Below, piece by piece: positions 6,135 to 22,813 of a stretch of 23,254 nucleotides of DNA. The stretch is taken from the IMG/VR virus record IMGVR_UViG_2651869755_000006, positions 1 through 23,254 of that record; one strand, written 5' to 3'. Each line of letters opens with the position of its first letter. Positions within the stretch are counted from its first letter, which is position 1. Under the pieces are notes generated by a model that worked only from the letters and a program-made list of their open reading frames with translations, made no database searches and was not told the origin of the DNA. This stretch comes from a virus (taxonomy: Duplodnaviria; Heunggongvirae; Uroviricota; Caudoviricetes). A program made the position numbers and the translations under genes.

Positions 6135-6580
6135 TTACTTAAGACCTCATCAATAGCCTGATTCATTCGCTGTATGGCAACCTGCGCCGCCAGCTCCTCT
6201 GTCGTATCGAAAGCCGGACGAATGAATGGATGCGCGGGCATGTTTATCGTTCCCAGCTCCACAAAGCGCCAGTAAAATGCATTTCGGGGATCGCTGGCTT
6301 TCATGCTGTTATCACTGTTTCCGGTTCGCAGGTTCCGTCCGCGAATGTGGACACCCGAGATAATTTCCCCCCGACGCTTTGAACGCTGAGTGAGAACAAC
6401 CACATTTTTCTTCAGTTTCCCGGTTCGCTCCGGCGCACGTTCAACAACTGCATCCCGCATAACTTCAGCACCGGCACGGGTGGCATCGCGCAGAACCTTA
6501 TTGTTTTCTGCCCTGCTGAGCGCCTCCAAATCCCGTGCAATATCCGCCAGGCCGGAAAAATCAAGACTGAAATCCATCAC
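6131..6580 (-). CDS. HK97 gp10-like tail component, 149 aa
   Basis: Position between head closure and tail completion genes; 4-nt overlap with the downstream gene; sequence resembles the HK97 gp10 family from memory. Confidence 0.6.
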   Translation of the reverse strand: MMDFSLDFSGLADIARDLEALSRAENNKVLRDATRAGAEVMRDAVVERAPERTGKLKKNVVVLTQRSKRRGEIISGVHIRGRNLRTGNSDNSMKASDPRNAFYWRFVELGTINMPAHPFIRPAFDTTEELAAQVAIQRMNQAIDEVLSK

Positions 6581-6915
6581 ACATTTCCCTTCAGGCTGCA
6601 GAGCATTTCAAGCCGGGTAGCGCGTGCATCCGGTATTGGTGGACCTTCTATACCCAGAATCGCGCCTTTGAATGCACCGGTCAGCACTTTCAGACGTGAA
6701 GTCGCTGTCACATCGCGCCGGAATCTCATCCAGACTCTGACCGTAGCCTGAGCGGTTTCTGCTCCGCCTGAGATTATCTCCCTCCCGCTGATACCCTTAA
6801 CTTCTGCCCATACGGTAGCTCCCTCCGTCACCGTCTCCACCGGATGCCCTGACGGAGAGCGGGCGGTGGTGACATTCAGAATAATTACGCGATCACGTAA
6901 TCTGCCCGCCTGCAT
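6577..6915 (-). CDS. Head closure / head-tail adaptor protein, 112 aa
   Basis: Small ORF in the head-tail connector block, overlapping the downstream gene by 4 nt; order after the gp6-like gene. Confidence 0.6.
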   Translation of the reverse strand: MQAGRLRDRVIILNVTTARSPSGHPVETVTEGATVWAEVKGISGREIISGGAETAQATVRVWMRFRRDVTATSRLKVLTGAFKGAILGIEGPPIPDARATRLEMLCSLKGNV

Positions 6916-18975: not shown

Positions 18976-19329
18976 ATGAATAAAACAATTTGTTTTCTAT
19001 TGGTTTTTGCAATTTCAGGATGCGTCAACCCTTATAACTACAGAGAAGAACAAAATGTTATTATCTCGTTCAAAACAAATTCTCCACCACAAGAAATACA
19101 AGAATGCATTCTCAGTGAGTGGCAGCGTACACCTCTCTTAGCCACTATCACGTCTCAAAAAATTGGCAAGTATTACAGCGTATTAGCGGTTGCAGATAAT
19201 GCCGACATTTATAAGTTGGCAGATGGTTCTACTATCATTGATTTTTATTCCCTTCGAGGGGGCTTAGACCCCACCAATGGGAAAAGCAAGAGGATTCAGG
19301 GAATTAAATCATGTATTAGCACTAAATAA
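18976..19329 (+). CDS. Putative lipoprotein of unknown function in an AT-rich cargo segment, 117 aa
   Basis: MNKTICFLLVFAISGC signal peptide with lipobox Cys; gene and its 61-bp leader are visibly more AT-rich than flanking phage DNA. Confidence 0.6.
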   Translation: MNKTICFLLVFAISGCVNPYNYREEQNVIISFKTNSPPQEIQECILSEWQRTPLLATITSQKIGKYYSVLAVADNADIYKLADGSTIIDFYSLRGGLDPTNGKSKRIQGIKSCISTK

Positions 19330-19433: not shown

Positions 19434-19589
19434 TTACTCCTCAGGTTCGTAAGCTGTGAAGACAGTGACCTCCGTCTGGCCGGTTCGGATTCGTACCTCG
19501 CAGAGGTCTTTCCTCGTTACCAGTGCCGTCACAATGACGGTAATACAGATGACGATCAGGGCGACTAACATCGCCTTTTGCTGCTTCAT
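19434..19589 (-). CDS. hok: Hok-family type I toxin, 51 aa
   Basis: MKQQKAMLVALIVICITVIVTALVTRKDLCEVRIRTGQTEVTVFTAYEPEE is near-identical to E. coli Hok/Gef family proteins as I recall them; AAGGAG Shine-Dalgarno 9 nt upstream. Confidence 0.85.
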   Translation of the reverse strand: MKQQKAMLVALIVICITVIVTALVTRKDLCEVRIRTGQTEVTVFTAYEPEE

Positions 19590-19646
19590 AGCCTGCTTCT
19601 CCTTGCCTTTCGGCGCGTAAGAGGCTAACCTAGATTTGCCGTTCAT
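19434..19646 (-). CDS. mok: Mok-like in-frame upstream reading frame overlapping hok, 70 aa
   Basis: In-frame ATG 19 codons upstream of the hok start, as in chromosomal mokC/hokC pairs. Confidence 0.5.
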   Translation of the reverse strand: MNGKSRLASYAPKGKEKQAMKQQKAMLVALIVICITVIVTALVTRKDLCEVRIRTGQTEVTVFTAYEPEE

Positions 19647-19800
19647 AGATTGAGCCTCAGATTAATGTTAAGCGTCTTGCCGGACGCGTAATGTTAACTG
19701 GGGCTTTTCTCTATCTGCCTTTTGGTGTTCATGCCTGAGACAGATAGCCTCAAGCACCCGCAGCAATTCTACTTAACTCTCCTTTTCCCGCAAACCGTTT

Positions 19801-20225: not shown

Positions 20226-20389
20226 GCCGTAGCCCCTTCTTGATATTTTTCAAACCAGAACACAACTGGCTCTGCTTCCAGCGATGCCAGCGCAATCCGT
20301 GCCAGTTCCATTTGTTCACCACGGGTAAGCCCGTTTTCAAGCGGGTTTTTAATGAACAATTCAATACGTTCTTTGGTAATAGTGGTCAT
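20222..20389 (-). CDS. Hypothetical small protein, 55 aa (not in the ORF track)
   Basis: Reads [55 protein letters not shown]; AGGAG Shine-Dalgarno upstream; stop overlaps the next start. Confidence 0.45.
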
Positions 20390-20399
20390 GTGTTACTCC

Positions 20400-20663
20400 T
20401 TAACCCGCAGTGCTTTCAACTGATGAGGGGAACAAAATCTTTTCATCAAACCCTGCATTCATATCATGAACAGCAACACACCAATCCATCGACGAACGAT
20501 TATCAAGAGCCTCCATGATTTCATCCATGCGGCGTAGGTCATACAGGTAAATGCTTTTATCGCCAATGGTGTAAAAACCAATTTTTTTCGGTGATGGGCA
20601 GCGATCAAGAACGTCCTGTAATTCGTTCAACCATGCCCGTTCTTTTTTTGTCAAAGTTGCCAT
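20400..20663 (-). CDS. Hypothetical early protein, 87 aa
   Basis: ORF preceded by AAAGGAGAG Shine-Dalgarno within the repeated linker; starts 1 nt after the upstream stop. Confidence 0.55.
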   Translation of the reverse strand: MATLTKKERAWLNELQDVLDRCPSPKKIGFYTIGDKSIYLYDLRRMDEIMEALDNRSSMDWCVAVHDMNAGFDEKILFPSSVESTAG

Positions 20664-20664
20664 A

Positions 20665-21156
20665 TCACTCTCCTTTGATGCGAATACCAGTGGTACTCAT
20701 TATCCTGATTTCCCAGAGCACACGAGGAACACCACCGTTTCCGACTGGATCGCGTTTACTCCGCAGGGCGACGCTTGATTCCGCCCAGCTTTTTCTTGGA
20801 GGAAGCTCTTTCACACGAACAAAACCAGCTGCGCGAAGAGATGCTCCTGATTCATCTGCCCGGGTGTACGTAATACAACGTTGATAACCCATAGCTTTTG
20901 CTGCCCGCCAGACAGCACCATAAAGCGCGCTGTTAGCGTTGCGTTCTCCTGTGGTACATGTGCGATTTACTTCAAGCGTTAATCCATCATCCAAATGTCG
21001 TGCAACAGGTCGACCGGCTGTCGCCACACCTATCAATTCTCCGGCATCATTTCTCAGACCAATGCTGAATTTATGCCCCACCGGGGGTTTATTGTGTCGG
21101 TGATGTCTGGATATAAACGCCTTCGCAACACGAAGAGTAACCGGTGAAATTTGCAT
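20665..21156 (-). CDS. Hypothetical early protein, ~163 aa from the ATG at 21156
   Basis: Internal ATG at 21156 has the AAAGGAGAG linker Shine-Dalgarno; the ORF-track start at 21195 would overlap the upstream gene. C-terminus ...GIRIKGE is encoded by the linker repeat. Confidence 0.55.
   Translation of the reverse strand: MQISPVTLRVAKAFISRHHRHNKPPVGHKFSIGLRNDAGELIGVATAGRPVARHLDDGLTLEVNRTCTTGERNANSALYGAVWRAAKAMGYQRCITYTRADESGASLRAAGFVRVKELPPRKSWAESSVALRSKRDPVGNGGVPRVLWEIRIMSTTGIRIKGE
20668..20690 (-). repeat. Linker repeat copy A: CTGGTATTCGCATCAAAGGAGAG (minus-strand sense)
   Basis: 23-bp sequence shared with copy C (one mismatch) and in its 3' 15 nt with copy B; encodes the ...GIRIKGE C-terminus and the Shine-Dalgarno of the next gene. 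Confidence 0.7.
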
Positions 21157-21158
21157 TC

Positions 21159-21518
21159 TCACTCTCCTTTGATGCCAATGTTTACAGACTGGCAAGCCTC
21201 TTTGAGCACCCAGTCAACAGCGTCTTTCCATGCTCCGGTTTCGACTGGCGGATTCTCACGCTTTACCTGTTCATAGAAACGCACTGCTTTAATCAATCCT
21301 TCTGGTGTCAGTGGCACAGGCGGGGCAGTGAATAACGCCTGAATTTCATAGTTCGGTCTGTCGTTGCAATCCTCTTTTGTCGGTACATATTTCCAGTCAC
21401 CAACCCACTGCTTCCCCTGAAAGTCTGTAACGCCTTTTTTCACGTAGCGATATCGCCATGCCACTGGTTTTGCCTGCCCTGCCTTTTCATGCCCTTCCTG
21501 ATAATTAATCTCGCTCAT
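21159..21518 (-). CDS. Hypothetical early protein, 119 aa
   Basis: ORF ending ...NIGIKGE on the linker repeat; its start overlaps the stop of the upstream acidic ORF (ATGA). Confidence 0.55.
   Translation of the reverse strand: MSEINYQEGHEKAGQAKPVAWRYRYVKKGVTDFQGKQWVGDWKYVPTKEDCNDRPNYEIQALFTAPPVPLTPEGLIKAVRFYEQVKRENPPVETGAWKDAVDWVLKEACQSVNIGIKGE
21162..21176 (-). repeat. Linker repeat copy B: GGCATCAAAGGAGAG
   Basis: Encodes ...IGIKGE-stop and the Shine-Dalgarno of the next gene. Confidence 0.6.
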
Positions 21519-21691
21519 TCATCGCCCCACTCATCACAATATGCTTCGACCGGTGTTTTCCCTGCTTCATAATCATCACGCCATGCTTCAGCATCAGCGG
21601 CACTTCCACCGCGTAACTCTGCATAATCCATTAACAGTTCATGCCATTCTTCAAAACTGGCGTTATATTTAGTTGAACCAAAATCAGCCAT
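21515..21691 (-). CDS. Small highly acidic protein, 58 aa (not in the ORF track)
   Basis: Reads MADFGSTKYNASFEEWHELLMDYAELRGGSAADAEAWRDDYEAGKTPVEAYCDEWGDE; 16 Asp/Glu against 4 Lys/Arg; translationally coupled on both sides. Confidence 0.45.
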   Translation of the reverse strand: MADFGSTKYNASFEEWHELLMDYAELRGGSAADAEAWRDDYEAGKTPVEAYCDEWGDE

Positions 21692-21866
21692 TTTGTTCTT
21701 CCTCTTCGTCTTTTATTTCGTGGTATGAGTAATTGCAGTAGTTAAAGAAAATATCTTTAGCTTCATCCTGTATTTCATCTGGTGTTGCATCATCATCCAC
21801 TTCGAATTCATCCTCGAAATCTCCACCGGCTATTCCCGTTTCAATAATTATTTTGAATTTTCGCAT
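21684..21866 (-). CDS. Small highly acidic protein, 60 aa
   Basis: Reads MRKFKIIIETGIAGGDFEDEFEVDDDATPDEIQDEAKDIFFNYCNYSYHEIKDEEEEQNG; 20 Asp/Glu against 5 Lys/Arg; 8-nt overlap with the next acidic ORF. Confidence 0.5.
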   Translation of the reverse strand: MRKFKIIIETGIAGGDFEDEFEVDDDATPDEIQDEAKDIFFNYCNYSYHEIKDEEEEQNG

Positions 21867-21961
21867 TTCACTACCGCCCTTTCGGACGGCCTCCTGATGT
21901 TCTGAGGGTGCAGAAATCCCTCCGGTTAAGGATTTGATTTTATTTACAGTGCTAAATTTAA

Positions 21962-22318
21962 TTATTCAGTTCTGGATTTTGTCGCCCTGCGTATCCGCGC
22001 TTTCGCGTTACGCTCAATCTGAATTAACTTTTCTATATTTTTCCGCCTTTCCTGTTCCTCCTGGCGCAATAGCCTTACATCATCTGCCAGTCTGGTTTCT
22101 CTTTTCGCCACAGAGAGCATCCAGTCAAACGGCTCCACAACTGCACCGCAGATTTTACAGCGGACCTGACGCTCTTTTTCGTCAACCCGGACAGAAGCGT
22201 GATGGCAATATGGTCTTTCCGATGGCTCATAAAGAAAATTAACCTGATTACGAGGGTCATCCTCTTTTACCGGAAATAAAACGATATTGCTTAACTCATC
22301 CTCTGGTTTTATTTCCAT
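21962..22318 (-). CDS. Hypothetical protein with Cys/His cluster and basic helical C-terminus, ~119 aa from the ATG at 22318
   Basis: YCHHASVRVDEKERQVRCKICG possible zinc-binding cluster, then RRKNIEKLIQIERNAKARIRRATKSR; AAAGGAGAGG linker Shine-Dalgarno before the ATG at 22318. Confidence 0.5.
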   Translation of the reverse strand: MEIKPEDELSNIVLFPVKEDDPRNQVNFLYEPSERPYCHHASVRVDEKERQVRCKICGAVVEPFDWMLSVAKRETRLADDVRLLRQEEQERRKNIEKLIQIERNAKARIRRATKSRTE

Positions 22319-22322
22319 GCTC

Positions 22323-22345
22323 CTCTCCTTTGATGCGAATGCCAG
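22323..22345 (-). repeat. Linker repeat copy C: CTGGCATTCGCATCAAAGGAGAG
   Basis: Lies in a 58-nt intergenic gap and supplies the Shine-Dalgarno for the gene starting at 22318. Confidence 0.7.
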
Positions 22346-22375
22346 CGGTAATTGAAGCCTGATAGCTAATTTCAC

Positions 22376-22813
22376 TCACAGTACCGTCTCCTGAAAATTA
22401 CCCTGATAGAAAGCCAGTACACGCTGCATAGCTTCACTCTTCCGGCACTCGCGACAGATTATGTTTAGGCGCCTGTCGTAGCGGCGTATTTCGCCGTCTG
22501 GTAATAGCCAGATAAGGTCCGGATCAACCACAGATGGTTTCTTCAGCTTTGCCCTTGAGAGTTTTTTGCGGGCGTTTTGCCAGTCCTTGCGCGCCTGCTC
22601 AGACGGGAATACTCCGTAACCAGAATTGTAAACATCACCACTGGCGGCCAGCTCCATGCATAAACGACCGACAGACGCATGACTGACACCAATTTCATCC
22701 GATAACTGCCGAATCGTGCCTCGTCCGTTAAGGCGTACGAATTCCACGATCAGCCCTTTAATTTTTTCCCGCTCTTCTTGTGTAAATACTTTTGCCATAA
22801 GCGCCTCCGGCAA
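22376..22813 (-). CDS. Putative winged-helix DNA-binding protein, 145 aa
   Basis: HTH-like segment GTIRQLSDEIGVSHASVGRLCMELAASGDV; similar layout to the adjacent upstream ORF. Confidence 0.5.
   Translation of the reverse strand: MPEALMAKVFTQEEREKIKGLIVEFVRLNGRGTIRQLSDEIGVSHASVGRLCMELAASGDVYNSGYGVFPSEQARKDWQNARKKLSRAKLKKPSVVDPDLIWLLPDGEIRRYDRRLNIICRECRKSEAMQRVLAFYQGNFQETVL

Follow-up and report, generated by a model that had tools for sequence, protein, structure and literature searches.

We report that a 23,254-nucleotide (nt) stretch of tailed-phage DNA (IMG/VR record IMGVR_UViG_2651869755_000006, positions 1 to 23,254; hereafter, the window) carries three copies of a short linker at gene junctions, and that this linker is, with a probability that we put at roughly three in four, a module that moves between gene junctions in enterobacterial temperate phages and would supply both a translation-coupled junction and a short stretch of homology for the exchange of gene cassettes. 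The anatomy of the linker, its distribution, the reassortment of its flanking genes, and the breakpoints that fall upon it are read directly from the sequences compared; the mechanism that would join these observations is considered after them.

The linker, (CTGGY)ATTSGCATCAAAGGAGAG, occurs three times in the window, always on the minus strand (22345..22323, 21178..21162, and 20690..20668) and always 4–7 nt 5′ of a start codon. Copy A (22345..22323) reads CTGGCATTCGCATCAAAGGAGAG, copy C (20690..20668) reads CTGGTATTCGCATCAAAGGAGAG, and copy B reads GGCATCAAAGGAGAG over 21176..21162 and ATTGGCATCAAAGGAGAG over 21179..21162. Copies A and C are similar over 28 nt (TACCRCTGGYATTCGCATCAAAGGAGAG, 26/28 identical), and copies B and C have ATTSGCATCAAAGGAGAGTGA in common (20/21), including an exact run of 17 nt that takes in the TGA stop codon. 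A first-pass annotation, made from the letters of this DNA and its open reading frames (ORFs), had placed three linker copies before three start codons; sequence and ORF list bear out those coordinates, and the lengths that it assigned are corrected to the extents just given. With the 17-mer TTCGCATCAAAGGAGAG and up to three mismatches, 3 matches are found against 0.08 expected, a number reached in 0 of 100 shuffles, and the 12-mer core ATCAAAGGAGAG with at most one mismatch likewise yields 3 matches against 0.12 expected in the window. The copies differ at their 3′ ends: copy C closes with a T followed by the ATG of an 87-amino-acid (aa) gene at 20663 (TGA + 1 nt + ATG), copy B closes with GA followed by the ATG of a Mom-like DNA-modification gene, XF1762, at 21156 (TGA + 2 nt + ATG), and copy A has GAG in place of the stop codon. 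The consensus is (CGCGCC)GCTGGCATTCGCATCAAAGGAGAG-TGA-K-ATG.

Read as protein, the linker provides the last 8–10 codons of the upstream gene, (RA)AGIRIKGE, and in the window the translated ORFs end in ..TTGIRIKGE* and ..NIGIKGE*, as expected from the earlier observation that two copies double as the terminal codons of the preceding gene. The K-G-E codons (AAA GGA GAG) are at the same time the Shine–Dalgarno (SD) sequence AAAGGAGAG, with AAGGAG 6 nt 5′ of the ATG in copies B and C, as in the consensus, and in agreement with the SD role that the same annotation had given to the linker. Among 169 complete non-redundant junctions, a start codon directly follows the stop or the linker in 168: a stop, 1 nt, and ATG in 93; a stop, 2 nt, and ATG in 13; a stop, 1 or 2 nt, and GTG in 13; and the variant GAGCATG in 49, where the start lies 4 nt after the linker, there is no stop at this point, and the upstream frame continues past the start. 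The stop thus precedes the start by 1–2 nt in 119 of the 169. The sequence hallmarks of a coupled junction are present, namely an SD sequence within the upstream ORF at 5–9 nt and a stop within a few nucleotides of the start.

The same arrangement bears on a known peculiarity of the Ea22 proteins, all of which have been reported to end in ‘+GE’, a feature of unknown significance (Dydecka et al. 2020, PMC7093339). The lambda Ea22 end, ..SDAGIRIKGE, is encoded by the linker, and the ‘+GE’ ending is explained as the ribosome-binding site AA(A/G)GGAGAG of the next gene. No match to PF13935 (Ead_Ea22) was found in the two tail-bearing window proteins (the 119-aa protein and the 163-aa XF1762 protein), and some other carriers do match; the tail therefore neither defines nor is confined to the Ead/Ea22 family.

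The linker is widespread. The 17-mer TTSGCATCAAAGGAGAG is present in at least 119 IMG/VR contigs, and the 37-nt consensus matches 389 phage records. Lambdoid carriers include Stx1 and Stx2 phages, HK620 (a perfect copy at the hkaG/hkaF junction), and lambda (the last codons of ea22), and the linker is found further in a P22-like Salmonella phage and in the P1-like phages P7, SJ46, and D6, the P7 copy (at upf88.3/upf89.0) being identical at 37 of 37 positions. In P22, no copy was found with up to 5 mismatches in 24 allowed. The consensus is present in 3087 of 5426 complete Escherichia coli genomes (57%), at 6795 places (median 2 and maximum 11 per genome), most of them under genes annotated as ‘ead/Ea22-like family protein’. 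Three operon contexts are represented: the PL exo–xis region, the PR nin-like region, and the P7 hea operon. The reservation in the first-pass annotation that the linker might be found only in this DNA is removed by these phage and bacterial records. In lambda itself, the ea22 linker is followed by TGAGATCGG, in which the ATG has become ATC, and by a 190-nt gap to ea8.5 (L269 2501..2720, equivalent to lambda 29655..29874); this is the sole junction without a start codon among the 169, and it has the appearance of a decayed cassette site.

When 300 nt on each side of 125 occurrences are clustered, the upstream flanks form 11 clusters and the downstream flanks 15, which meet in 37 combinations; the bipartite graph of these clusters has a cyclomatic number of 12 and contains 33 four-gamete squares. 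Over all fetched loci, 131 distinct junctions draw on 15 upstream and 18 downstream families, which are paired in 61 combinations; six upstream families have 7–8 different downstream partners each. The boundary of each upstream family is fixed, although the family pairs with up to 8 downstream families, and the reverse holds likewise; one upstream allele is joined at its fixed boundary to 8 or more downstream genes. The search and flank tabulation that had been proposed earlier on thus show flanks that differ, and the idea that the same pair of genes always adjoins the linker fails. The stretches of 60 aa before the tail sort into 10 groups that are mutually without BLASTP similarity, among them the lambda Ea22 C-terminal domain, the XF1762 enzyme, and a DUF977 fusion. 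The downstream families comprise Zn-ribbon, 87-aa, XF1762/Mom-like, queuine tRNA-ribosyltransferase-like, ClpX-zinc-finger, and DUF551 Ea22-like genes, along with several PHROGs of unknown function.

Samples anchored on individual genes do not depend on the linker. Upstream of the Zn-ribbon gene, the linker or a near variant is present in 80 of 80 loci, in at least six upstream contexts. Upstream of the 87-aa gene, about one-third of loci have the linker, about one-third a sister tail of the same length (CGCGCCGCTATGCTTCATGGGAAAGGAGAGTGATATG, RAAMLHGKGE*), and about one-third an unrelated junction. The XF1762 gene has at least eight upstream partners, joined to it through type-1 or sister linkers. 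At its other end, the tail on XF1762 is an appendage, because more distant homologues terminate in ..EIRRMK* or ..EIRRGV* with no tail and the NCBIfam XF1762 model stops short of it. Within E. coli phages, variants of the tail are both synonymous and non-synonymous (R>G, R>H, and G>D).

The ends of homology between genomes coincide with the linker. In junction pairs that are unrelated on both sides, positional identity is approximately 25% in the flanks, climbs from about position −9, reaches 91%–100% from −2 through the 17-mer, is 76%–85% at the ATG, and returns to background directly after it. The left edge of identity varies among upstream families from −1 to −9. Unrelated junctions match exactly over a median run of 24 nt, and the run is at least 23 nt long in 58% of cases and at least 31 nt in 9%. 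Phage vB_EcoS-689R5 (L001) is 96.9% identical to the window from 22347, the start of copy A, to 21159, the stop codon in copy B, and is again 98% identical from 20676, inside copy C; between 21159 and 20676, it has an Ea22-like gene in place of XF1762. The alignment of flanks that the first-pass annotation had suggested therefore locates the ends of homology at 22347, 21159, and 20676, within linkers.

In two other relatives (L077 and L094), a gene of the 119-aa type is joined to the 87-aa gene by a single hybrid linker, with no cassette between them, and the two alignments against the window share 36 nt at the linker. Such an overlap is the signature left by homologous crossover between copies B and C. 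The window locus accordingly exists in three states among relatives: with the XF1762/Mom-like cassette, with an Ea22-like gene instead, or with no cassette and one hybrid linker. The proposal in the first-pass annotation that a junction had been swapped by recombination at a shared linker gains support from the breakpoints, the reassortment, and these three allelic states, as far as sequence comparison can speak to such events.

Copy A lies between the DUF977 stop (22376) and the Zn-ribbon ATG (22318). Its IRIKGE frame is open but forms part of no sizeable gene, being at most a 27-codon GTG mini-ORF that overlaps the DUF977 stop at its start (GTGA) and the Zn-ribbon start at its end. In relatives, the same position is occupied by a full Ea22-like gene ending in the linker, by a 47-codon head-to-tail mini-gene, or by an in-frame DUF977 fusion: in L027 the copy A tail peptide extends DUF977 in frame, and it is joined to an Ea22 N-terminal head in 6–9 contigs, and vB_EcoS-689R5 has two additional genes here, the second of which ends in a perfect linker. 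The earlier description of the third copy as intergenic, with a readable IRIKGE frame belonging to no gene, is correct, and the full, mini, and fused genes of the relatives mark copy A as a gene remnant, probably left after loss of an upstream Ea22-like gene.

These observations can be accommodated in a single scheme. A promoter-less gene behind the linker would be translated from a polycistronic early mRNA, probably by termination–reinitiation coupling; since the SD sequence and the stop/start both lie within the linker, any promoter-less gene placed behind it should be translated. The same 24–37 base pairs (bp), standing between unrelated genes of co-infecting phages or resident prophages, would provide barely sufficient identity for homologous recombination. 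Minimal efficient pairing segments are 23–27 bp for Red-beta and 31–34 bp for RecA (De Paepe 2014, PMC3945230); set against the Red-beta minimum, the 24-nt median run makes homologous exchange by single-strand-annealing recombinases the most likely route, and the exchange would mainly be carried out by phage enzymes of the Red-beta, RecT, or Erf type. A crossover inside the linker would insert, delete, or replace a whole gene and leave behind an in-frame, still expressible junction. The first fusion of the tail to XF1762 or DUF977 must, under this scheme, have been non-homologous. We infer the translational coupling, the class of recombination enzyme, and the role of the linker as a cause rather than a marker of exchange from the pattern of sequences just described.

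Several observations weigh against assigning all of this pattern to exchange at the linker. The comparative evidence records where exchanges ended rather than their rate or the enzyme responsible, and the window does not extend to the recombinase genes of this prophage. About one-third of the junctions 5′ of the 87-aa gene are without the linker, as is the junction 3′ of that gene, where diversity begins after a conserved Ea22-like 5′ head (MTTITKER); the linker is thus one among several short conserved segments in these genes. In more distant phages, moreover, what persists of the tail is the peptide pattern A-G-[IV]-x-[IV]..E*, written in other codons. The tail is thus evidently translated and under moderate constraint, and it may in part be conserved as protein. 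As regards the other segments, Ea22-like genes share two of them in addition to the linker, the 5′ head ATGACCACTATTACCAAAGAACG and a 14-residue motif (in the window, 20256..20296 and 20366..20389, both minus strand; in L001, 5516..5556 and 6432..6462); a 40-nt motif within these genes is likewise common to them. Because diversity 3′ of the 87-aa gene starts only after the head, the head and motif segments are probably exchange points too.

Relatives of the tail were also sought through its peptide. A scan with the back-translated peptide covered one genome per species in a collection with few enterobacterial phages, and is hence weak evidence: it returned 38 matches with the exact DNA (32 of them lambda contamination) and no codon-variant relatives beyond chance, as the 27 matches with other codons fell in unrelated taxa and compare with about 40 expected by a back-of-envelope estimate. 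The 32 lambda-like contigs (among L204–L262) carry an identical lambda ea22 3′ end, are mostly short and in many cases labelled low-coverage, and belong to assemblies of Streptococcus, Prevotella, Streptomyces, Bradyrhizobium, and others; they are most likely lambda DNA contamination of public assemblies. At the sister junctions of distant phages 5′ of diverged XF1762 genes (L389–L426), the peptide pattern and the SD sequence are kept and the DNA is different, the tails being AAGIKEESE*, AAGIGVKGE*, AGVNVEFE*, AAGIKVEAE*, AGIQIQGGE*, AGVDVREAE*, AGINLETGGE*, and RAAMLQGKE*; in these loci, type-1 and type-2 tails both pair with the same upstream families. The exact type-2 26-mer always precedes one XF1762 allele (16 contigs), and a scan for the type-2 linker found no contigs beyond those 16.

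It is against this background that a function of the tail itself must be judged. If (A)AGIRIKGE were a functional C-terminal peptide for interaction, sorting, or turnover, the identity of the DNA could be a by-product, and such a function would be compatible with a role in recombination. The unrelated proteins that keep A-G-[IV] tails 5′ of diverged XF1762 (80%–93% aa identity) speak for this, as does the fact that their codons differ mainly at third positions (GCT/GCA/GCG, GGC, and ATT/ATC/ATA/GTT/GTC), and so does the ‘+GE’ end reported for all Ea22 proteins (PMC7093339). However, the stop is absent in 49 of 171 junctions, where the protein is 9 residues longer and the motif is not C-terminal; copy A lies outside any real gene; the SD sequence already accounts for the K, G, and E codons; the tail is found on enzymes whose homologues do without it and varies non-synonymously (R>G, R>H, and G>D) within E. 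coli phages; the back-translated scan yielded exact DNA, with other-codon matches within chance; and the lambda Ea22 C-terminal domain is structured over only 64 residues, a longer terminal helix in the AlphaFold model having been judged implausible (PMC10834534). We therefore consider a peptide function as the reason for the conservation unlikely. Slightly less likely again is a maintained ‘docking site’ that combines the two roles, in which unrelated accessory or anti-defence proteins would share a C-terminal tag (R-A-A-G-[IV]-x-[IV]-x-G-E) and the DNA of the tag would allow promoter-less cassettes to pass among the PL, PR, and P1 hea operons; the tag could serve, for example, a common partner, the timing of turnover, or coupling to the next protein. 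Were this true, the linker would be an integrase-free analogue of integron cassettes.

Three further explanations were weighed. Illegitimate joints filtered by selection (the Hendrix/Juhala model), with the linker travelling as the leader of the downstream gene, could produce some of what is seen, since the 3′ end of the linker changes together with the gene that follows it (behind the type-2 leader CAAGGAGGAGTCTGAGTGATG there is one XF1762 allele in every case), the left edge of identity depends on the upstream family, and XF1762 or DUF977 must first have gained the tail by a non-homologous fusion. Yet each upstream family has a fixed boundary despite up to 8 downstream families, and the reverse is also true; boundaries fixed whatever the partner disfavor independent joints, and the cassette-less allele, with its one hybrid linker and 36-nt alignment overlap, points the same way, so that we regard this model as improbable. 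A little less credit again can be given to the view that the copies resemble one another solely because each is a strong ribosome-binding site combined with overlapping stop and start, arisen independently or selected for translation, with no part in recombination. The 3′ half, AAAGGAGAGTGAKATG, is indeed a near-consensus SD sequence at optimal spacing and the most conserved part, and it also appears in other junction types (CATGGGAAAGGAGAGTGATATG and GTACCAAAGGAGATTGATATG), but translation covers about 9–16 nt and not the 5′ half, GCTGGCATTCGCATC, which is identical at unrelated genes; the SD sequences at other junctions in this operon are quite different, and the coincidence of homology ends with the linker would be left unexplained. 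Least credible of all is that a dedicated enzyme, be it a homing endonuclease or a site-specific recombinase of the integron kind, acts on the linker, or that the linker works as a structured or regulatory RNA. Some related regions do contain HNH endonuclease genes, and the cassettes behave in a manner resembling integron cassettes, but the linker shows neither an inverted repeat nor a significant fold, matches no Rfam family, has no enzyme gene consistently adjoining it among the 18 downstream families, and is not identical with Chi.

Specific candidate identities were rejected on similar grounds. Neither the consensus nor any of the three window copies folds better than shuffled sequences (z = 0.76, 0.88, −0.32, and −0.69), and an Rfam scan gave no family at the linkers. 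In place of the Chi octamer GCTGGTGG, the copies read GCTGGCAT (A), AACATTGG (B), and ACTGGTAT (C). Neither a promoter on the coding strand nor a terminator was found in the linker. An integron attC-type site is contradicted by the lack of a hairpin fold and of a recombinase among the flanking families (the prophage integrase lies outside the window).

The genes around the three copies are listed in Table 1.

Table 1. Linker copies and adjoining genes in the window.
Feature	Position	Strand	Description
DUF977 (LygF-like) gene	22376..22798	-	Pfam PF06163, E 2.7e-29; 5′ of copy A
Upstream-gene tail remnant	22296..22379	-	VSEISYQASITAGIRIKGEEHGNKTRG*; readable as a 27-codon GTG mini-ORF
Linker copy A	22316..22347	-	CGCTGGCATTCGCATCAAAGGAGAGGAGCATG; from the start of homology in related phages to the Zn-ribbon ATG
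Zn-ribbon gene, 118 aa	21962..22318	-	phrog_1621; 3′ of copy A
119-aa gene	21159..21518	-	phrog_660; ends ..NIGIKGE* in copy B
Linker copy B	21154..21179	-	ATTGGCATCAAAGGAGAGTGAGAATG; IGIKGE* end of 119-aa gene, SD sequence, and XF1762 start
XF1762/Mom-like DNA-modification gene, 163 aa	20665..21156	-	phrog_1384; ends ..MSTTGIRIKGE* in copy C
Linker copy C	20661..20695	-	TACCACTGGTATTCGCATCAAAGGAGAGTGATATG; TTGIRIKGE* end of XF1762 gene, SD sequence, and 87-aa gene start
87-aa gene	20400..20663	-	phrog_1714; 3′ of copy C

Upstream of these genes are DUF1627 (YdaW-like) and DUF977 (LygF-like) genes, and downstream are hok/sok, a YdfU-like gene, and RusA, followed, by comparison with vB_EcoS-689R5, by Q and late genes. 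Based on this context, we place the region in a Rac-type lambdoid E. coli prophage, within the nin-like stretch of its rightward delayed-early operon and 3′ of the replication genes. The description of these junctions as early-gene junctions in the first-pass annotation is accordingly right for a rightward delayed-early (nin-like) operon and wrong for the early-left operon. No sigma-70-like promoter was found on the coding strand between window positions 19000 and 23254, so the genes there depend on a polycistronic message. The 3.4-kb arrangement is rare, covering at least 80% of its length in 17 of the 5426 E. coli genomes, and pieces of it are present in 4800. The XF1762 gene matches NCBIfam NF045478 (E 1e-60) over residues 3–136 of 163, and the cassette that contains it, between copies B and C, is a 494-nt linker-to-linker unit found in 21 loci. 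Cassettes at the linker include DNA-modification genes, both the Mom-like XF1762 of the window and a queuine tRNA-ribosyltransferase-like gene (phrog_887, d8 family, in L061), which suggests that anti-restriction cargo may be shuffled there.

Two further features of the region were noted. A hok/sok-type module lies at 19434..19759 on the minus strand, where an Rfam sok match (19584..19759, 111 bits) overlaps a 70-aa hok-like ORF (19434..19646). A GNRA-tetraloop hairpin, CCGTCC-GAAA-GGGCGG (21889..21874, minus strand), stands 8 nt 5′ of the DUF7167 start (21866), with no T-run after it; the gap that holds it is the one intergenic space of any size in the region. Its L001 counterpart, CCGCCC-GAAA-GGGCGG, replaces a T.G pair with C-G and keeps the stem.

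Explanations of phage mosaicism have been divided between conserved linkers (Botstein, Clark) and random illegitimate joints filtered by selection (Hendrix). The boundary sequences that Clark et al. described in HK620 in 2001 are said to separate functional modules; compared with boundary sequences so described, the present linker separates single accessory genes, sits in the coding end of the upstream gene, and occurs up to 11 times per E. coli genome, across operon contexts and in both lambdoid and P1-like phages. In other respects, the resemblance to the linkers of Botstein and Susskind and to boundary sequences is close: the linker is short, lies at gene boundaries, is conserved between dissimilar lambdoid genomes, and is a proposed focus of recombination that reassorts modules. 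The features by which boundary sequences are recognized comparatively are all found here, namely unrelated flanks, location at a gene boundary, reassortment, and identity segments that end at the linker. Linker-driven mosaicism as a concept is credited to Botstein’s linkers and Clark’s boundary sequences in the passages of PMC3029335 and PMC2839356 that treat it, and according to PMC3029335 a clear linker is difficult to recognize at most boundaries. The present one is an unusually clean and abundant case, being in lambda, in 57% of complete E. coli genomes, and in dozens of flank combinations, and it makes a defined sequence available for an experimental test of the linker model. A search of open-access full texts for the linker DNA or IRIKGE found nothing relevant. 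With the ‘+GE’ tripeptide (PMC7093339), the linker has the residues in common; there, however, they are a protein motif, and here they belong to a DNA junction that is also on non-Ea22 proteins.

Among other mobile arrangements are the PeSL (promoter-early stem-loop) cassettes of T4-type phages, whose repeated elements are intergenic and consist of a promoter and a terminator stem-loop (Arbiol et al. 2010, PMC2839356). As in T4, short repeats flank single non-essential genes, mediate insertion, deletion, or replacement, and supply expression signals, but the linker has neither promoter nor stem-loop, is partly coding, and carries signals for translation rather than transcription. Rad52-like phage recombinases are known to permit relaxed exchange between temperate phages and prophages over short or diverged homology (Martinsohn 2008, PMC2327257; PMC3945230), and those two studies detected flanking traces of homologous recombination (‘HR traces’) statistically and in engineered crosses, with no specific recurrent linker described. 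The proposed enzymology is shared with the linker, whose 24-nt median run fits the Red-beta minimum. Like integron cassettes, the genes behind the linker are promoter-less single genes bounded by a recurrent site; unlike attC, the site has no integrase and no folded imperfect palindrome, and its exchange would proceed by general homologous recombination. The linker would thereby show how Mom-like and queuine-transglycosylase-like cassettes can pass between prophages without promoters of their own, and it is a clear new example of the known linker and boundary-sequence idea.

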